Assembly: GCA_963695545.1 (NCBI GenBank)
Contig: OY968796.1
Location: 1,344,001 to 1,408,000, forward strand
Reading direction: 5' to 3'
DNA length: 64,000 nt
Origin: Terriglobia bacterium
GTDB taxonomy: Bacteria > Acidobacteriota > Terriglobia > Acidiferrales > UBA7541
Position numbers and translations under genes: made by a program. Within the stretch, counting starts at the first letter, position 1, and every line of letters starts with the position of its first letter. The notes beneath the pieces were generated by a model, which saw only the letters and a program-made list of their open reading frames with translations, was not told where the DNA came from and did no database searches. Below are positions 1 through 51,064 of this stretch, piece after piece.

Positions 1-1
1 C

Positions 2-2734
2 GATTTGACGGTTGGGCTTGTCGAAGTAAATGTTCTCCGCGAGTTGCAACTGGTTTGTGAACAAATACGCGTGCGCCAAATTCACTTCCATCCAATCCTG
101 CGTCGAATCCATTTTGAGCGAGGTCTGCGCGTCAGCCAGCGCTTGCGCATATTGCTTGGTCAAAAGCTCCGACCAGGCCAGATTCCCGTAGGTCTCCGCT
201 TCTTGCGCTTTCAATTTGGTCGTCGCAGCGTCGCCGGTTGCTTTCCCAAGATCTGTCTCCAGAACTTTTAGCTCGTCGAGATAGGTCTGGCGCGCGCCTG
301 TGTAATCGGCGCCCTTCCCGTCCTGCTCGCTGGCCAGCGTCTCGTACGCCAACCAGAGGTTGTCGTCATACTGCGGATCGTCAGCTGCTTTTAGGGCGGC
401 GGCCAGCGCTTGCCGATCGTACTGCAAGGCCTTCTGCGGTTGATTTTCGTCGTCGGCAAGGCCGGCGATGTGACGCTCCACGATCGCAAGGTGGTCTTCG
501 GATTTGGGATTGTCATGCGCGTGGATCAGGTCTTGCGCGGCCTGCTCGCAATGCAGAAAGGCGTCGGTCGCTTTTGCGTAGTTCTTTTCGCCTTCGTACA
601 CCAGGGCGATCTCATCGTACGCTGCCCACGGATCGTCGTCGTACTGCGCATCGCTCGCCGCACTCTGTGCGGCCGCGAGTTCGGCCTGAAAATCCTGCAT
701 GGCTTGCGGCAGATGATTCTCGCCGTCGTCGAGAATGCCGATTTGCTGCTCCACCGTCGCAAGATGGTCCTCGGATTTTGCGTTGTCGTGCGCTTTGATC
801 AGGTTTTGGGCCGCCTGCAGGCACTGCTGAAACGCTTTGGTCGCATTCGCGGTGTCGTTTTGATCCTGGTACAACAGCGCGATCTCATCGTACGCCGTCC
901 ACGGATCGTCGTCGTCCTGCGCATCGCCAGCCGCAGCCTTTTGGGCGGCCACAAGTTCGGCCTGAAAGTCCTGCATGGCTTGCTGCGGCTGATTCATGTC
1001 GTTCGCGATGACGCCCATATTCAAGTCCGCGGTCGCAAGATCGTCCTCCGATACGGCGTTGTCGTGCAGTTGGATCAGTGCTTTCGCCGCCTGCTGCGTT
1101 TGGAGGAAGGCGGCGGCCGCGTTCGCATCGTCCTTTCGGTTCTCGTACAACACACCGAGCTCGTCGTTGAGTATCCACAGGAGCACGTCCACTCGATTGC
1201 TCTTCGCGTCTTGCGCTCTGGCTGCCTGCGCGAATTTCAAGCCCGCTTGATAGTTGGTGAGCGCGGTTCCCTCCGCCTTCCCGTCCTTCTTAGCTTGCAG
1301 AGAGGCTGCGTAGCCACTCATCATGTGGCTCAAAGCCTGCGCCACATTCACCTGCTCGGCGTTTCCGAGTTCGCCGGCCATGTGCTCAAAGAAAACGTTG
1401 TTTTGATTCCAGAATGGTCCGAGCTTTGCCGTCATGTCCGAGTCGCTGCTGGTTTGCTGGTAGAGCTCGATGTCGGAATCGAGCACTTGATTTACCGCCG
1501 TCGTCGCGATGTTCTTCGCGCGGCGCGCTTCGTGCACGGCATAAATCGTCAGGCCCAGCAGGACCAGGCACGCCGGCGCGGCCACGCGCGCCACGCGGAT
1601 CACGCCGCTCCGATAAGCGGCCTTCTGGCGCGCCACTTCGTCGAGCGGCAGGTTCGCGCGCACCCATTCGCGATCGAACACGCGGAAATAAATACGATTG
1701 CGAACGAACAAAAAGCCTTCGCGAACGCGGATGATTCCCGAAAGCCGCAGGATGGAGATCAGTGGGTGCGCGGGATCGTCGCGCAAGCGATCGTGCCTGC
1801 GAACGCGATCGTAGAGCATCAGCAGCGCGGTGTGGTCGCTCTCGCTGCGCAGGATGCGGTCGCGCACGAACAGCAGGTTGTCGTCGCGCTCGCGCGCTCG
1901 CGCGGAAAGGAACAGATCCTCGCAGATGCGGTCCACGCCGGCGACGCTGTCGACCTCCGGATCGTCCGCGACCGCCAGGCACAGTCGCTGCGTCATGTAC
2001 GGATGTCCGCCGGTCCAGTACAAAATCCGCTGCAGCAGCAGCCGCCCGATTTTTTCCGGCCGCCCGAGCCCGGGCAGAAGCGTTTCCGCTTCAGCCTCGG
2101 TGAAATCAGCCAGGTCGATGCGCACGCCCACGTTGAACGGCGTGGTGCGGGCGTCCTGAATCAAGTCCGAAGGAGTGGCCACGCCAATCAGACAGAAAGT
2201 CAGTCGCTGAAGTTCCGGATCTTCCGCGCGGCGATTGTAGAGTTCGCGAATCGACGCAAAAAACTCGTCGGTTACAAATGGCACGCTGCGCGTGGCGTCG
2301 ATTTCGTCGACGAATATAACGACTCGCTCGCGCACCCTCTCGAGCACGACCTCCCGCAGCGCGCGCGTCCAGCGCTCAAGAGGAGAAAGCTCCGCGTGCG
2401 CGGCCCAGAATTCCTCCACTTCCTTTTTCAGCCCAAATTGCTGCGCCGCCCGCGACGCGAGGCCTCGGTACCACTGCTCCGGCGTCAGATTCTGGCCCAG
2501 CGCGGTCAGATCGAGCACCGCCACGCGCGTATCGCCTTGCGCGCGCAATGCCACTGCCGCGCGCACCATCAGCGACGATTTGCCCATCTGGCGCGACGTC
2601 AGAACGTAGCAGAATTGGCCCGCGCGCAGCGCCGTCAGCAACTCTTCATCCGCCTGCCGGCGCACGTAGCTCGCGGCGTCGCGCCCGAGTGTACCTCCCA
2701 CGACAAAGAATTCGCTTCCAGTCGTTTCGGTCAC
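2..2734 (-). CDS. AAA_35/STAND-like P-loop ATPase + single TM helix + TPR-like repeat domain (partial; no stop codon found inside the window)
   Basis: Translated by hand. RBS AAAGGAGG, then GTG at 2734: [33 protein letters not shown]...; Walker [14 protein letters not shown]; Walker [11 protein letters not shown]; hydrophobic segment [24 protein letters not shown]; then acidic helical repeats. No stop seen in the stretches translated, including the last ~400 nt to the window edge, which would explain its absence from the ORF track. Confidence 0.85.
410..1170 (-). repeat. About 3 tandem ~91-92 aa intragenic repeats (paired TPR-like helices)
   Basis: A cgcaag(a/g)t(g/c)gtc...gatcag motif recurs at 485, 758 and 1034 (273/276 nt spacing). 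Protein unit HDN.KSEDHLA...[13 protein letters not shown]...DDDPW.AYDEIAL.Y. Confidence 0.85.
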
Positions 2735-2801
2735 AGGACCCTCCTTTCAAGCCGCTGTCTCACGGTTTTCCCGGAGCCACTTGGCAGATTTGCGTCCGGC
2801 G

Positions 2802-4853
2802 CTAAGTCAAATGACGCAGTAGGAATTTCCGGTACAGCTCGCAGCGCGGCGTCACTTCATTCGACGACGCGCCCGTCATCACGCCCGCGCTCCGCAGGCG
2901 CACAAAGTCGTCCATGGAGATGGATGCCTTGGCCCCCGCCGCTCCGATCACCTGGCGGACCGCTACGGTCAACGCGGGATTTTTCGCCAGGGTGACCAGG
3001 ATCCTGCGCAGATGGTCGCCGAACGGCCCTTCGTCCTGGTCCGCTATGCTCTCGAACGCCTCAAGCGACCCGCCGTTTGCCGCTGCGCCTGAGCCCGCGG
3101 CCAGCGCCGTCAACTCCTGCAAACCGCGCCGCACAAGATAAGGACTGCCGCCGACGAGCGCGAAAAACCGTTGGATCTCCGCGGGGGATTTGAGCGGCAT
3201 CCCGTAGCGCCGATTGAGTTCGGCCACTTCCTCGATTCCGAAATCGCGCAACTCGATTTTGGTGCCGACGTTGAATGGCGATTGGTTGATGTCCTTGATG
3301 AACAGATAAGCTTCCGTCGCGTAGACAATCACCATGCTGAGCCGCGTCCACGGACCATCGGGATTGAGCATGCGATCGTTGTGCCACGAGCGGAAAAGCC
3401 CGAAGACTTCGCTGGCGAATTCGCTCGTGAACAAGCGGTCCACTTCGTCCATGCCCCACACCAGCGAATGAGGAACGCCCTCGAGAACAGTTTCGATAAA
3501 CGCCGCGAAATTGTCGTTCGCGGAATCACCGGCGCGCCATGTCTCATCGAGCGATATTTTCAGTCCCAGCCGCTTGATCATCTGCTTCATCAGCGCGCGG
3601 TAGAACTTATCGATGCTCGAAAGATCGTCGGTGTTGAGCGTCTGAAAATCCGTGGTCACCACGGTGGCGCCGGCCGCGCGCGCTTGTTGCAGCCCGCGCG
3701 CCAGAAGCGAAGTCTTTCCCATTTGCCGCGCGCCCTTCACCAACACCACGCATGTTCGCCGGTCGACGGCTTTGCGAAATTCCGCATCCGTGGGCCGCTC
3801 GATGTAATACTCGGAATCGAGCGGCACCGCTCCCCCGGCTGGCTCCGGTTCTTTGAGCACCGGCGCGGGTCCCCGCAGCGACGCCGCAAGTTCGGTCGCC
3901 ACACGCGCGTTGTCTTGCGCGTCCCTCCACGCAAACTGCGGCGCCGCGTTCAGAATGCCGCCCAGAGGTTCCGCGAGCGCCTCTCCATAAGCTAGGCGCA
4001 CGGGCAGCAAACGCGGCTTCCCTTTCTGCTGGTCGGCCGCGCCGTGCGCCGTTTCCACTTCCCATTCCATCATCTCGCTTGACGCCGACGCCGCTGAAAT
4101 CAACGGAATCACGGCGTCGGAGGCGCGTATCTGCTTCTCGATCTCCAGCAGCCATTCGGTGCCCTTTTGTGTGTGCCGATCGACAAATACCTGATGGCCC
4201 TGAGCGTTCAATTGATCCTCGAGCCACTGCGTCAGTGTTTCGTCCGGCTGGGCGTTTCTCTTATACAAAATCGCCAAGTGCAGTCCGCTCGGAGCAACCG
4301 CCGCGCCCGCGGCGCTCGGAGTAGTCGTAGCGCTCGGCACGCCTGGGGTGTTCGCGGTGACTTCGCTCACGCGAGCCGCACCCGGCAAGATTTCGATATC
4401 CGGCGCCAGGCCGCCCGCACGCAGGCCTGCAATGATTCGCGGCAACGCCGCCGCTGCCCCTCCGGCCCCGATCGAGACCGCGCTCGCCGCGGCCATGATC
4501 TGTCCCCATTCACGAATCTGGTCGGAGGTGCGTTGGCGCGCCTCGAATTCGTCGTGCGTCATTTGATAAAGAACGGGGATTTTTTTCTTGCGCGATTTGT
4601 AGGCACGCACCGCTTCGGCCGTGATTTCATCGGGGCCGTCGCAGGAGTGCGGCGAGATCAGCAGCAAAAACGCGTCGCAGCGCTCGATTGCCTTGCTGAT
4701 CTCCACCAAATAGGAACCGCCCGAAGGACAATCGCGCTGGTAGTACCACGTGCTGTAGCCCGCGGCTTCAAGACCGCGGGCCAATTCCTGCGCGACGCTC
4801 CCGTCCTCTTCGACGTAGCTGACGAAAACTTTCCGCTCGACAGGCAATTCCAT
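2802..4853 (-). CDS. TIR-TIR-AAA_35 (STAND-like) ATPase
   Basis: TIR1 VFVSYVEED...AIERCDAFLLLISPHS...ITAEAVRA; TIR2 LAILYKR...VFVD...IRASDAVIPLISAASASSEMMEWEVETA; Walker A KGARQMGKTSLL; Walker B VWGMDEVD; SPFNVG motif. Start placed at ATG 4853 because the ORF-track start overlaps the upstream gene. Confidence 0.88.
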   Translation of the reverse strand: MELPVERKVFVSYVEEDGSVAQELARGLEAAGYSTWYYQRDCPSGGSYLVEISKAIERCDAFLLLISPHSCDGPDEITAEAVRAYKSRKKKIPVLYQMTHDEFEARQRTSDQIREWGQIMAAASAVSIGAGGAAAALPRIIAGLRAGGLAPDIEILPGAARVSEVTANTPGVPSATTTPSAAGAAVAPSGLHLAILYKRNAQPDETLTQWLEDQLNAQGHQVFVDRHTQKGTEWLLEIEKQIRASDAVIPLISAASASSEMMEWEVETAHGAADQQKGKPRLLPVRLAYGEALAEPLGGILNAAPQFAWRDAQDNARVATELAASLRGPAPVLKEPEPAGGAVPLDSEYYIERPTDAEFRKAVDRRTCVVLVKGARQMGKTSLLARGLQQARAAGATVVTTDFQTLNTDDLSSIDKFYRALMKQMIKRLGLKISLDETWRAGDSANDNFAAFIETVLEGVPHSLVWGMDEVDRLFTSEFASEVFGLFRSWHNDRMLNPDGPWTRLSMVIVYATEAYLFIKDINQSPFNVGTKIELRDFGIEEVAELNRRYGMPLKSPAEIQRFFALVGGSPYLVRRGLQELTALAAGSGAAANGGSLEAFESIADQDEGPFGDHLRRILVTLAKNPALTVAVRQVIGAAGAKASISMDDFVRLRSAGVMTGASSNEVTPRCELYRKFLLRHLT

Positions 4854-6097: not shown

Positions 6098-9034
6098 TTG
6101 GGTGTCGGAATCTCTGTGGCCACGTCGACCACAAAACTCGATCCGCGCGCCGTCCAAGAACAATTGCTCGACGTCGTGCGCGGCTTGCTCGGCGAGCTGG
6201 GCAATTCGCGCGCGGAGCAAACCGCCAACATCGGATCGCATCTCGAGCGCGACCTCGGTCTCGGCAGCCTCGAGCGCGTTGAACTGCTCGTGCGCCTCGA
6301 ACGCGCGCTGGCTGTGCGCCTGCCAGATAGCGTGATGGCGCAGGCGGAGACGCTCTCTGACGTCGCCGCAGCTCTCGTTTCCGCCGACTTCGCCGCGGCT
6401 CTCGGCACCCACCGCGCGGCGCCCGTCTTCACATCAACTCCAGCGCCAACAGGCTCGACGATCGCCGCGGACACCTCGGCATTTGAAACCCTGCAACAAG
6501 TCCTCGCGCACCGCGGGCGCGCCGACTCGGCGCGCGCGCATCTAGTTTTTTGGAGCGACACCTCCGTCGAATCTTCAGGCGCGCCCAGCACAACGCTTAC
6601 GTTCGGCGACCTCTACGAAGGCGCGCACCGTTTCGCAGTGGAACTCGCGCATCGCGGAGTCTCCCCGGGCGATGTCGTTTCGCTGATGCTTCCGACGTCT
6701 CCCGAATTTTTCTTCGCCTTTGCCGGTACTCTTCTTGCCGGTGCCGTCCCCGCGCCGATTTATCCACCCATTCGCGCCGACCGCATCGAAGAATACGCCG
6801 AGCGCCAAGCCGCGATTCTCTCGAACGCTCAGGCCAAGCTCCTCGTTACTTTCCGCGAAGCCGCAGGCGTGGCTCGTCTGCTTCGCCCGCGCGTTCCTTC
6901 CCTTGATGGCGTAGTCACCGCCGCTCGTCTTCTCGCAGAGCGCCACTCCGATCTGCCTCTGCCAGGTCTCGGTCACGGCGACGACGTGGCGCTGCTGCAA
7001 TACACTTCGGGCTCGACGGGCGATCCCAAAGGCGTGACGCTTAGCCACAGCAATCTTCTCGCGAACATCCGCGCCGCCGGCGAAGCTCTCAACGTTCGCC
7101 CAGACGACGTCGGCGTCAGTTGGCTCCCGCTATATCACGATATGGGTTTGATCGGCGCGTGGCTCGGACCGATGTGCTTCGGCATACCGCTGATCGTAAT
7201 GTCGCCGCTCGAATTTCTCACGCGGCCTGAGCGCTGGCTCTGGGCCATCCATCGCCATCGCGGCACGCTGAGCGCCGCGCCGAATTTCGCCTACGAGTTA
7301 TGCCTGCGCAAAACGCACGAGCGCGATCTCGAAGGATTGGACTTGAGTTCGTGGCGCGCCGCGCTCAACGGCGCCGAACCCGTGCTGCCCGAAACGCTCG
7401 ATCGTTTTGCCGAACGTTTCGCGCGATACGGTTTCCGCCGCGAAGCACTGACGCCGGTCTACGGTTTGGCGGAAGCCTCGCTCGCCGTCACATTCCCGCC
7501 GCCGGGGCGCGGACCGCGTGTGGACCGCGTCGATCGCGCAAGTCTCGCGGAAAATGGCCGCGCAGTTCCCGCCGCATCGCCTGCCGCTGAAGGCGGCGTT
7601 GAAGATGATTGCGCGAGTGTTTCGTTCGTATCCGTCGGAAAGCCGATTTTGGATTGCGAAGTCCGCATCGTTGCGGAAGGTGACGGTGGGCGCGCCGGGG
7701 AACCGGGCCGCGAAGCCGAAGAGCGGTGCGAAGGACAACTCTGGTTCCGCGGCGCTTCGTCCACGCGCGGTTACTACCGAAATCCCGAGGCCACCGCGCG
7801 CCTATTTCCGCTTGGGCCCGCTGCCGGCTGGATTAATTCTGGCGATCGCGCCTATCGCGTGGATGGCGAGTACTACATCACGGGCCGCACCAAAGACATC
7901 ATCGTGAAGGCCGGCCGGAATCTCTATCCGCACGAAATCGAAGACGCCGTCGCGCGCGTCGCCGGCGTGAGGCGCGGATGCGTTGTGGCCTTCGGCACAG
8001 CCGACGCGTCGAGCGGCACCGAACGCCTGGCGGTCGTTGCGGAAACGCGCGAGCGATCGGTCGAGGCGCGAGAAAAACTTGCCGCGGCCATCACCGCGGA
8101 GGTCGCACGCTCCGTCGGCGTGCCACCGGATGCCGTGCTGACCGTGCCGCCGCACAGCATTCCGAAAACTTCGAGCGGAAAATTGCGCCGCGATCGCACC
8201 AAACAACTCTACCAAGCCGGAGCGTGCGGCGCGCCGACGCGCCCGCCGTGGCTGCAGGTAACGCGCCTCGCTCTCAAGGGTCTCGCGCGCTCCGTCTGGC
8301 GTGTCGCGCGGATTGTGCCCGAAAAACTTTACGGCGTGTATGCCGACTTAGTGCTCACCGTGCTCATGGTTCCCGCATGGGCGATCGTACTTCCTGTGCG
8401 CAACCGCAAGTTCGTGGCGCGCGTGGCCGTCGGCGGCCTGCGCGCTTGCTTCCTGCTCATGGGCAGCCCGATCCGCGTTTCCGGGCGCGAGCATCTCACC
8501 GCTCACGGCGCGTGCGTCCTGGTGAGCAATCACGCAAGCTACATGGACGTGCTTGTGCTCATGGCCGGCCTCGGCACGGACTTCCACATCGTCTCCAAGG
8601 GCGAAGTCCGCAAAATGCCCGTCATCGGAACGTTCCTTCACAAGCTCGGCCACTTCTGGTTCGACCGCGCCGATCCCCAAGCGCGCCTGCGCCAGGCCGA
8701 GCAGATCGAACAATCTCTGCGCCACGGCGAATCCGTCTACGTCTTCCCCGAAGGAACGTTCACGCCACAAGTGGGCGTCCGGCCGTTTCAATTGGGCGCG
8801 TTTCAAGCGGCTGCACGCGCAGGTCGCCCTATCGTGCCCATCGCGCTTCGCGGCACGCGCCACTTTTTGCGCGACGACACTTATTTGCCGCGCCCCTCGC
8901 GCCTCGAGATTCACGTTGGCCCGCCCATCGAACCCCGCCCCACCGAAGCGAATCTCTCCTGGCAGGAAATCGTTCGCCTGCGCGACGTCTCCCGCGACTG
9001 GATCGCCCGCGAAGCTGAGGAGCCTGTGCTTTAA
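6098..9034 (+). CDS. ACP - fatty acyl-AMP ligase - PlsC-type acyltransferase fusion
   Basis: N-terminal carrier domain (LGLGSLERVEL); adenylation motifs LQYTSGSTGDPKG, WLPLYHDMGLIG, YGLAE, IPKTSSGK; C-terminal NHASYMD and FPEGT. Exact start uncertain. Confidence 0.9.
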   Translation: MGVGISVATSTTKLDPRAVQEQLLDVVRGLLGELGNSRAEQTANIGSHLERDLGLGSLERVELLVRLERALAVRLPDSVMAQAETLSDVAAALVSADFAAALGTHRAAPVFTSTPAPTGSTIAADTSAFETLQQVLAHRGRADSARAHLVFWSDTSVESSGAPSTTLTFGDLYEGAHRFAVELAHRGVSPGDVVSLMLPTSPEFFFAFAGTLLAGAVPAPIYPPIRADRIEEYAERQAAILSNAQAKLLVTFREAAGVARLLRPRVPSLDGVVTAARLLAERHSDLPLPGLGHGDDVALLQYTSGSTGDPKGVTLSHSNLLANIRAAGEALNVRPDDVGVSWLPLYHDMGLIGAWLGPMCFGIPLIVMSPLEFLTRPERWLWAIHRHRGTLSAAPNFAYELCLRKTHERDLEGLDLSSWRAALNGAEPVLPETLDRFAERFARYGFRREALTPVYGLAEASLAVTFPPPGRGPRVDRVDRASLAENGRAVPAASPAAEGGVEDDCASVSFVSVGKPILDCEVRIVAEGDGGRAGEPGREAEERCEGQLWFRGASSTRGYYRNPEATARLFPLGPAAGWINSGDRAYRVDGEYYITGRTKDIIVKAGRNLYPHEIEDAVARVAGVRRGCVVAFGTADASSGTERLAVVAETRERSVEAREKLAAAITAEVARSVGVPPDAVLTVPPHSIPKTSSGKLRRDRTKQLYQAGACGAPTRPPWLQVTRLALKGLARSVWRVARIVPEKLYGVYADLVLTVLMVPAWAIVLPVRNRKFVARVAVGGLRACFLLMGSPIRVSGREHLTAHGACVLVSNHASYMDVLVLMAGLGTDFHIVSKGEVRKMPVIGTFLHKLGHFWFDRADPQARLRQAEQIEQSLRHGESVYVFPEGTFTPQVGVRPFQLGAFQAAARAGRPIVPIALRGTRHFLRDDTYLPRPSRLEIHVGPPIEPRPTEANLSWQEIVRLRDVSRDWIAREAEEPVL

Positions 9035-49376: not shown

Positions 49377-49696
49377 GGTTATCTCCGAAGCTGAAATTCT
49401 AGCACCGTGCCGGGAAGGGCGCTGCCGACGGAAGCGTAATTACGATTGGGGGCGGGGGAGATGGAAGATTTGTTGGCGCGGATTGGACTGCTCGCTACGT
49501 TCCCGATTTCTCGGGGCCGTCGTCCCCGCGATGCTGCGCCCAATCCGCAGCGTCGATAATGACGATCGGACGCGCGCGCCGGAATAGCCCATAAGCCCGA
49601 TTTCGCCGGTACCGGGGTTGTAGTACCCTAGTGACGCTTCATGGTGGACGACACGCCTGCACCGGAAAAAAGAGAGCTTCGCTTGATGGGGGCGAA

Positions 49697-51064
49697 ATGA
49701 GACGCGCATCTCAACGCAATCGCAGAGCGGGAATTTTCAGTTGCGCTGGAATGGTGCTGGCAGCGGGCTTGGCCTTAGCGATTGCTTCGCCGTGGATTTC
49801 CGCGACGCCAGCGCAGTCGCAAGCGCCGGCCACGCCGCCTCCCGGCGGACCGCCCGTCGCGGGCTCGGCGTCAGGCGCCGGCTCGCCAGCAGCTGAGGCG
49901 GCCGCAGCTGCGCCGCCCGCGACCGTGGCGAAAACGGCGGGCGATGCATACATGAACGTGACCGTGCTCAACAACATTCCCGCCGATCAGTTGCTATCGA
50001 CGATGGAATTTATTTCGACGTCGCTCGGTCAGCACTGCACTTTTTGCCACGTAGTTCCCAATTTTGAAGACGACAGCAAGCAGACCAAAACCGTGGCGCG
50101 CAAGATGATTCAAATGGAACTCGATATCAATAAAGCGAATTTCAATGGCCGCGTCGAAGTCACCTGTTACACCTGCCATCGCGGCGCCGCGCATCCGGTC
50201 GGCACTGCGCCGATTCCGGAGGAAGGCCAAATGGCGATGACGCCTTCCATGCCGCCGATGGATCACGGTCCGGGCGGAGGAATGGGAACCGGAGGTCCGC
50301 CGGCGGGTGGCGCGCAAGGCGCTCCCGGCGCGGGACCTGGCGGAATGGCGCCGGGAAACCAACCCGCGGTGCCGACGGTCGATCAGATTATCGACAAATA
50401 TACGCAAGCCATCGGCGGCGCGGACGCATTTGCGAAATTGACGAGCGTCGAGGCTGAGGGAACCGGCATGCTTGAAGGGGAACAGCCGGGGCCAAACCTG
50501 AACGTTAAGATCATCCAGGAAGCGCCGAACAAGCGCTGCGTATCGCTCGTGGGTCCGAGCGGCACCATGACGACGGCCACCGACGGCACCGATTACTGGG
50601 GACAGACCACGAGTGGACAGGTCCACGATCTGGCCGGAACGCAACTGGTGGAAATGAAACGCGCAGCGGATATGACCTGGCTGCTGAACATCCGCACAAA
50701 CTTTTCGCAACTGCGCGTGGCGGGAACGGATGAGGTGGGCGACCACAAGGTTTACGTGGTGATGGGCATTCCCGCGGGCGGCGGCCCGAGGGAGCGTCTG
50801 TTGTTCGACGTCGATAGCGGCCTCTTGCTGCGCTACATGTTCTTCGCGCCCAGCCCGCTCGGCAATAATCCGATCCAGGCCGACTTCAGCGACTATCGCG
50901 ACGCCGGCAACGGGTTGAAAGTGCCGTTCACGATCCGCACGGCAACGCTTAGCTCCGCCCTCACGCTGCACCTCAGCAAAATCCAGTACAACGTGGCGGT
51001 GGACGACAGCAAATTTGCAAAGCCGGCCTCAGTAGCGGCGCCGGCGCCCGCGCCGACGCAGTAA
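49697..51064 (+). CDS. Exported di-heme c-type cytochrome (reaction-centre cytochrome c family-like) + C-terminal beta domain
   Basis: CTFCH and CYTCH heme motifs; KTVARKMIQM; C-terminal FSDYRD..GLKVPF. Confidence 0.8.
   Translation: MRRASQRNRRAGIFSCAGMVLAAGLALAIASPWISATPAQSQAPATPPPGGPPVAGSASGAGSPAAEAAAAAPPATVAKTAGDAYMNVTVLNNIPADQLLSTMEFISTSLGQHCTFCHVVPNFEDDSKQTKTVARKMIQMELDINKANFNGRVEVTCYTCHRGAAHPVGTAPIPEEGQMAMTPSMPPMDHGPGGGMGTGGPPAGGAQGAPGAGPGGMAPGNQPAVPTVDQIIDKYTQAIGGADAFAKLTSVEAEGTGMLEGEQPGPNLNVKIIQEAPNKRCVSLVGPSGTMTTATDGTDYWGQTTSGQVHDLAGTQLVEMKRAADMTWLLNIRTNFSQLRVAGTDEVGDHKVYVVMGIPAGGGPRERLLFDVDSGLLLRYMFFAPSPLGNNPIQADFSDYRDAGNGLKVPFTIRTATLSSALTLHLSKIQYNVAVDDSKFAKPASVAAPAPAPTQ

Follow-up and report, generated by a model that had tools for sequence, protein, structure and literature searches.

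How might a signal received outside a bacterial cell reach a soluble TIR-domain effector when sensor and effector are carried by two separate, paralogous ATPases? This question is raised by two adjacent genes, here named A and B, on the minus strand at one end of a 64,000-nucleotide stretch of DNA from a bacterium of the Terriglobia (phylum Acidobacteriota; contig OY968796.1, positions 1,344,001 to 1,408,000, of GenBank assembly GCA_963695545.1), referred to below as the window. A first-pass annotation, made from the sequence alone, described a TIR-TIR-ATPase effector beside a membrane-anchored ATPase-TPR receptor and suggested a Toll-like role in defence or cell-contact signalling. The paired architecture is real; it is not a one-off, being one variant of a very large family of ATPase pairs whose sensors and outputs are exchanged. 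We judge it an even proposition that the pair is a general envelope or cell-contact signalling switch, a two-part membrane receptor, and not a dedicated apparatus of anti-phage suicide.

Effector and sensor reside in separate AAA_35 ATPases

Gene A (2802..4853, minus strand, as are all features of the pair) encodes a soluble TIR-TIR-AAA_35 protein of 683 residues, with a peak hydropathy of 1.7 and no membrane helix; its orthologues begin at the same Met. Pfam recognizes two TIR_2 stretches and an AAA_35 domain (PF14516) at residues 341-678 (258.5 bits), and the same profile matches residues 15-250 of gene B (100 bits), both scores lying above the curated cut-off of 27 bits. From the N-terminus, the gene A protein consists of TIR1 (residues 6-148; 4410..4838), with a canonical FVSY start and Glu80 at the catalytic position; a low-complexity Ala/Pro/Thr linker (residues 149-190; 4284..4409) that is ~50% identical among orthologues versus 83-92% for the TIRs; TIR2 (residues 191-330; 3864..4283), which carries Glu265 and represents an ATPase-proximal TIR subfamily common across the AAA_35 family; and an A-type, STAND-like AAA_35 module (residues 338-683; 2805..3842) with intact Walker A (G374-A-R-Q-M-G-K380-T381) and Walker B (D469-E470) motifs. 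Glu80 and Glu265 fall in a single alignment column, that of the catalytic Glu of helix C, as the first reading of tandem TIRs had placed them, and the protein ends directly after its ATPase with no sensor domain.

The two open reading frames (ORFs) are separated by a 67-nt spacer (2735..2801), in which the terminator scan lists no terminator-like site and which contains AAAGGAGG, a ribosome-binding-like site 5 nt upstream of the GTG start of gene B at 2734; promoter and terminator scans of the locus gave chance-level results. Gene B (1..2734) continues past the window edge to position -202, 203 nt beyond it, and flanking genome sequence shows it complete at 978 residues. Its B-type AAA_35 module (residues 8-372; 1619..2713) is 32% identical to the A module, these being the sole two AAA_35 matches in the genome, and keeps the Lys, Ser, Asp and Glu of the nucleotide-binding motifs (Walker A, T46-S-R-Q-M-G-K52-S53; Walker B, D143-E144). 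Thr replaces the first Walker A Gly, a point missed at first pass and true of 60 of 62 B-type rows in our alignment. There follow a predicted single membrane helix with a basic N-terminal flank (residues 382-400; 1535..1591) and a predicted extracytoplasmic, acidic, TPR-like solenoid (residue 405 to ~950; 1..1522), built from units of 91-92 residues that vary in number among relatives. Pfam TPR matches to this region fall under the curated cut-off; its net charge of -48, its confident model (predicted local distance difference test score, pLDDT, ~86-96 over residues 490-950) and its fold matches to TPR-type proteins agree with the acidic TPR-like tail originally described. The last TPR unit (~845-940) resembles the C-terminal end of two unrelated large proteins, a kinase-TPR protein (P0015) and an nSTAND1-Sel1 protein (P0016), a resemblance that suggests a shared capping module.

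Both proteins are AAA_35 members with a STAND fold, that of B being modelled at low confidence. The AlphaFold model of the A module (pLDDT 94) finds its best matches in two archaeal structures that we take to belong to the MNS clade of STAND proteins, 2qen (PABY2304; Z 21.5, root-mean-square deviation 4.0, 312 residues aligned) and 2fna (SSO1545; Z 20.6, deviation 4.0, 309 aligned), followed by resistosomes, CED-4 and ORC/Cdc6, with the TIR-NLR WRR4A at Z 16.7 and Avs3 at Z 12.7. The match to 2qen, 2fna, resistosomes and CED-4 covers residues 1-349 of the modelled module, as expected for the NTPase, helical and winged-helix parts of the ORC/Cdc6-STAND fold; the archaeal proteins share the fold over the whole A module but are stand-alone modules. 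In the gene B model, derived from a 12-sequence alignment, the ATPase part is of low confidence and the long helical solenoid confident. Sequence searches of the PDB returned no relative of either ATPase, only weak matches to TIR and TPR proteins and short ones to P-loops. Residues expected of active NTPases are conserved: the Walker Lys, Ser/Thr, Asp and Glu are present in every one of the 91 A rows and in 61-62 of the 62 B rows, and a G-x-P motif is invariant in all 91 A and 62 B rows. We do not claim an arginine finger; Arg196 of B (54 of 62 rows) aligns with Asn in A (86 of 91), and in fused B modules the Arg lies one position off. AAA_35 may correspond to the Npun2340/2341 (MNS) family of Leipe et al. 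2004, a name cited in PMC8195603.

The A-B pairing is conserved among distant relatives

AAA_35 occurs in 14 of 401 genomes of the phylum and in none of 14 control genomes, and the strong matches in the phylum repeat one arrangement, an A-type module at the C-terminus of one protein followed by a B-type module at the N-terminus of the next. Database-wide, the family comprises 4,760 cluster representatives (A profile, E-value of 1e-30 or better, both types counted); a scan of metagenomes gave one locus. From the best 80 of 499 confirmed matches of a genome-wide scan we obtained 78 A loci, of which 54 have a B gene downstream on the same strand, 2 have one nearby on the opposite strand, 9 leave no room for one and 13 have none. 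Where there is room, therefore, B lies downstream in 54 of 69, which bears out the supposition that the pairing is conserved among homologues. B is likewise adjacent in all four genomes of the same family that carry A, and pairs occur in three of four plasmid regions read (cyanobacterial and Chloroflexota), in A-then-B order on Nostoc and Tolypothrix plasmids and in reversed order on a Chlorohelix plasmid; the Gloeothece region holds two A-type genes only.

The two module types have remained distinct, motif differences between them being fixed across phyla, and they also occur naturally joined. Complete A and B modules share one chain in 6 of 19 long proteins (P0020, P0021, P0022, P0023, P0026 and P0027) and in P0046, with fusions in both orders. 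An apparent kinase-A-B-helix-WD40 fusion, P0017, was not counted; its A module stops at profile position 303 of 339, and it is probably a frameshift read-through. Across 60 pairs, distances among A modules track those among B modules (r 0.83, shuffle maximum 0.45; same nearest neighbour in 28 of 60), a correlation that ignores shared ancestry, which alone can partly explain it. Natural fusions and correlated divergence lend indirect support to a putative hetero-oligomerisation of A with B. Some loci depart from a one-to-one arrangement, with two B genes at L055, L090 and L044 and two A genes at L124, L125, L077, L062 and L072; this suggests combinatorial use, in which two receptors might feed one output or outputs might act in tandem.

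The B protein is predicted to span the membrane

A helix with hydropathy of at least 1.6 lies just after the ATPase in 50 of 51 B proteins, and the N-terminal flank is richer in Lys and Arg than the C-terminal one in 40, as rich in 7 and poorer in 4; for a comparable helix among A proteins, a hydropathy of 1.8 is reached by 1 of 85. A composition classifier trained on the host genome (160 proteins labelled heuristically as secreted-like and 933 as cytoplasmic-like; cross-validated area under the receiver operating characteristic curve 0.97) scored residues 405-950 of B as exported (1.0) and residues 1-375 as cytoplasmic (0.001). The Arg content of the tail, 1.6% versus a comparison value of 13.1%, is as low in only 2 of the 933 cytoplasmic-like proteins. 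Judged by hydropathy, charge bias and composition, gene B is predicted to encode an N-in/C-out single-pass protein with its TPR solenoid outside, in keeping with the extracytoplasmic location first proposed.

There would be no transmembrane unit at all if the hydrophobic helix belonged to the protein interior, with the TPR region serving as an NLR-like sensor in the cytoplasm, or if A and B were independent proteins left by an old tandem duplication. Such a view could draw on the gene B helix, whose Kyte-Doolittle value of 1.86 is among the weakest of the family (median 2.37), on fused B modules that lack a membrane helix, so that membrane spanning is not universal, and on the 13 of 69 A loci that have room for a B gene and none nearby. 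It accords poorly with the fixed position and asymmetric basic flank of the helix in 50 of 51 B proteins, the exported-type composition of the tail, the type-specific motifs held across phyla and the fusions in both orders, and we consider it very improbable.

The receptor tail itself is exchanged. Among 49 of 52 B proteins, the tail contains WD40 repeats in 35 (2 with FGE-sulfatase and 2 with TPR), PEGA or CarboxypepD_reg in 5, TPR only in 2 and no recognized domain in 7, making the TPR-type receptor of the host locus a minority form; the PEGA and CarboxypepD_reg domains, which take the place of the TPR region, accord with the predicted topology. We found 11 close homologues of gene B, one of them from a Candidatus Acidiferrales bacterium (NCBI name). 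A B receptor from the same family, at L140:5612-8758 (minus strand), has another tail, the end of which resembles a TonB C-terminal-type domain by eye.

Outputs are swapped at the N-terminus of A

The N-terminal regions at the 78 A loci carry a kinase plus TIR (16), a kinase (18), a cyclase plus TIR (5), a TIR (17), two TIRs (3), Trans_reg_C (11), BTAD (6) or no such domain (2). Among 150 independent cluster representatives, screened with small profiles of our own that yield approximate and overlapping categories, winged-helix or BTAD domains occurred in 41, kinases in 23, cyclases in 15 and TIRs in 83, a distribution resembling that of the 78-locus sample but with more SARP types. Toxic effector domains are absent from the 78 loci and form a minority in the wider sample. 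A FastTree phylogeny of 67 A modules places gene A among TIR-TIR and kinase-TIR members in a group with support, and shows 18 changes of output label (minimum possible 6). Two sister loci from the same family, L139 and L140, have close ATPases and differ exactly in the distal slot, which holds TIR1 in one and a kinase in the other. Because outputs swap in this manner, even between close sisters, TIR1 is identified as the occupant of a swappable output slot and TIR2 as the common proximal TIR of the family.

Retention of this proximal TIR beside kinases and cyclases (21 of 78 loci) raises the possibility that the TIRs are non-catalytic adaptors, recruiting a TIR-bearing partner encoded elsewhere as animal Toll-like receptors do, with the ATPase pair only a scaffold. 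The first strand of the proximal TIR is indeed degraded (LYKR-type, not FxSY), and the catalytic position holds Gln in 4 of 47 relatives (with a gap in 1). The same position is Glu in the other 42 and in 4 of 4 distal TIRs, and TIR1 of gene A combines a canonical start with Glu80; adaptor function therefore seems improbable to us, and we infer that the gene A TIRs may possess NADase activity.

The kinase outputs may connect the family with signalling across the envelope. At five kinase loci the gene directly upstream encodes a TIGR02999 ECF sigma factor whose ECF43 site reads QTTA, QTSA or QITA; these ECF43-like genes (L055:5031-5627, L056:4297-4875, L063:5279-5818, L090:4880-5521 and L094:103-687) complete a three-gene sigma/kinase/receptor module. 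The ECF43 sigma factor of Xanthomonas citri is activated by PknS, a receptor in which a membrane helix joins a kinase to a TPR region in the periplasm (PMC13147305). The kinases of the five kinase-AAA_35 genes lack a membrane helix, so a gene B-type receptor would supply it. By this analogy, the ECF43 link is the strongest indirect argument that the pair may transmit outside signals.

A stable locus with a rapidly changing sensor

Genes A and B sit between a DinB gene and two AMP-ligase genes, among housekeeping genes ~15 kb from dnaA and gyrB, and their GC content, overall and at third codon positions, is native for the genome. The order ligase-DinB-A-B-ligase is kept in two genomes of the same genus, and ligase-DinB-A-B on one metagenome contig. 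No match was found in three other genomes of the genus (66-92% complete) or in 68 of 72 family genomes searched. Among orthologues, the ATPases are 88-94% and the TIRs 83-92% identical, versus 52-67% for the ectodomain. Ratios of nonsynonymous to synonymous substitution rates (dN/dS) are 0.03-0.09 for ATPases and TIRs (0.05-0.09 for the TIRs), 0.09-0.15 for flanking genes and 0.18-0.27 for the ectodomain, where dS is also higher and no ratio exceeds 1. The ectodomain pattern fits relaxed or diversifying selection, or recombination, and does not prove positive selection.

The same split receptor could instead be a dedicated counter-invader system, in which the outer TPR region would detect an adsorbing phage, a predator or a toxin from a competitor and the TIRs would drain NAD+ so as to arrest or kill the cell. 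Several properties would suit such a role: both TIR Glu residues are kept under purifying selection (the TIR dN/dS above), the sensor changes quickly and its number of repeats is variable, presence is patchy, and relatives lie on 39 plasmid records, mostly cyanobacterial. A putatively viral IMG/VR contig (L128) carries one pair, TIR-AAA_35 plus AAA_35-helix. Outputs of defensive or toxic type also occur in a minority of relatives, namely caspase (2), DUF4145 (2), CHAT (1), trypsin (1), PNP (1) and TCAD9 (1) in the 44 of the 150 representatives that were rescanned. SAV_2336_NTERM begins 7 of 17 long homologues (P0019, P0021, P0023, P0024, P0025, P0030 and P0032), two of which hold both B and A modules; this domain is presumably the vWA component of predicted ternary conflict systems, to which it would link the family.

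Other observations point away from this role. In a sample of 142 neighbours of relatives (157 picked, 15 dropped for size), PADLOC profiles matched 6, of which NCBIfam assigns three to general enzymes (two AAA ATPases and RecD2), and McrC is an additional neighbour; as raw counts, ~4 of the 142 are plausibly defensive, and most named ones are housekeeping genes. A Pfam scan around the host locus recognized no defence gene, and relatives had no match in 50,697 phage records. Since most outputs in the family are regulators and not toxins, the host pair lies amid housekeeping genes at native GC, and its place is stable in same-genus genomes, defence is not favoured, and the Toll-like defence suggested by the initial annotation is not the leading reading; we regard dedicated defence as possible and on balance unlikely.

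For the signalling switch itself, the evidence is not all on one side. The minority of toxin-type outputs and the SAV_2336_NTERM fusions detract from it, as do the patchy distribution (2 of 5 other genus genomes and 4 of 72 family genomes), an ectodomain that changes faster than the flanking genes, and our not finding a gene for a receptor of the TIR product next to the pair. The unpaired A loci, the helix-less fused B modules, the shared ancestry behind the A-B correlation and the heuristic labels of the classifier, all given above, weigh in the same direction.

Other features of the surroundings are recorded here. The pair lies between two large AMP-ligase genes (6098-9034 of the window, plus strand, and L001:11393-14023, minus strand), in the same-genus genomes as well, and the upstream ligase contains carrier and acyltransferase domains in addition. 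A LOG-family gene (PF03641; 10040-11308, minus strand) ~5 kb upstream of gene A is probably a housekeeping neighbour; LOG proteins have the SLOG fold, which senses TIR products in Thoeris. At L001:8681-11120, ~3.9-6.3 kb beyond the left edge of the window, ORFs of 137, 273 and 301 residues lie between an M13 peptidase and the AMP ligase; they have no Pfam match at 1e-12 and are absent from that place in genome G403, and the 301-residue ORF is transposase-like by eye. An ORF at 49631-51064 (plus strand) partly matches photosynthetic reaction centre cytochrome c (PF02276, 72 bits).

Relation to described systems

PADLOC (2023 copy) and NCBIfam system models gave no match to B and, for A, only TIR-region and weak partial matches. 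Literature searches, with subscription journals outside their scope, found no description of the A-B pair and none for PF14516. AAA_35 is absent from the main texts and searched supplements of PMC7159879, PMC8195603 (without file 13) and PMC13581612, sources whose own clade names and accession tables could hide the family; the searched parts of PMC13581612, a survey of 589 STAND clades, do not name an AAA_35 pair.

A close organizational parallel is the two-gene nSTAND2 system (Kaur et al. 2021, PMC8195603), whose operon encodes a pair of STAND paralogues; these are predicted to assemble as a hetero-multimer, and one of them bears an effector that varies. In nSTAND2 the NTP motifs of one partner are eroded, an arginine finger is present in both, effectors are mostly GT4 or HEPN, and no membrane helix is described; in the A-B pair, both proteins keep the Walker residues, the effector is TIR-TIR and B is predicted to span the membrane. 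The nSTAND2 Pfam profile matched neither A nor B at E 0.01. Avs proteins, other bacterial NLRs and plant TIR-NLRs share the STAND fold and the logic of N-terminal effector, NTPase and TPR or WD40 sensor; they are single cytoplasmic chains, whereas A and B are separate paralogues with the sensor predicted outside and, in the family, outputs that are mostly regulators. The A-B pair is neither nSTAND2 nor Avs.

Division of labour between paralogous NTPases is known from paired sensor-helper NLRs such as NAIP-NLRC4, which are cytoplasmic and offer an analogy, not homologues. Animal Toll-like receptors provide another, in that an outside repeat sensor drives clustering of inner TIRs; they lack an NTPase, their TIR is part of the receptor itself, and homology is not implied. 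PknS-EcfK (ECF43) of X. citri (PMC13147305) likewise controls a cytoplasmic output from a TPR sensor in the periplasm by way of one helix; PknS is a single chain that lacks ATPases, and the AAA_35 family interposes an ATPase pair between sensor and output, the latter here being TIR-TIR. The pair might thus be likened to a paired NLR turned across the membrane, or to a receptor kinase system into which an ATPase pair has been inserted.

Discussion

The architecture of A and B divides sensor and effector between two paralogous ATPases, as the first-pass annotation inferred, and a general signalling switch could work as follows. The outward solenoid of B would bind a ligand, and the inner ATPase of the ligand-bound protein would seed a nucleotide-dependent mixed assembly with A. 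TIR domains are activated by clustering, and such an assembly would bring the TIRs of A together to cleave NAD+; the TIR version would then yield an NAD-derived signal or a graded drop in NAD+. Because the solenoid diverges fast, its ligand may be a variable partner, for example a protein on other cells, predators or phage.

Extended to the family, this reading is one that we advance somewhat more tentatively: AAA_35 pairs may constitute a general class of bacterial transmembrane signalling in which the places of histidine kinase and response regulator are taken by a sensor-STAND and an output-STAND, and in which sensors (WD40, TPR, PEGA, FGE) and outputs (winged helix, SARP, kinase to ECF43 sigma, cyclase, TIR, caspase) are freely exchanged. 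The host pair would then be an NLR-Toll hybrid that converts contact with a fast-evolving outside partner into TIR-made NAD signals. To this picture the host locus adds a TPR-type receptor, a fast-changing sensor at a stable site, the exchange of kinase for TIR between closely related loci, the natural fusions and the connection with ECF43.

Characterised STAND and NLR proteins sense inside the cell in one chain; AAA_35 pairs appear to relay a signal through the membrane to outputs that can be interchanged. If this is true, soil bacteria and cyanobacteria would possess one more mechanism in addition to two-component systems, receptor kinases and ECF sigma factors. The TIR-TIR version would offer a simple NAD+ readout for the whole class, and bears on outward-facing TIR receptors in bacteria.

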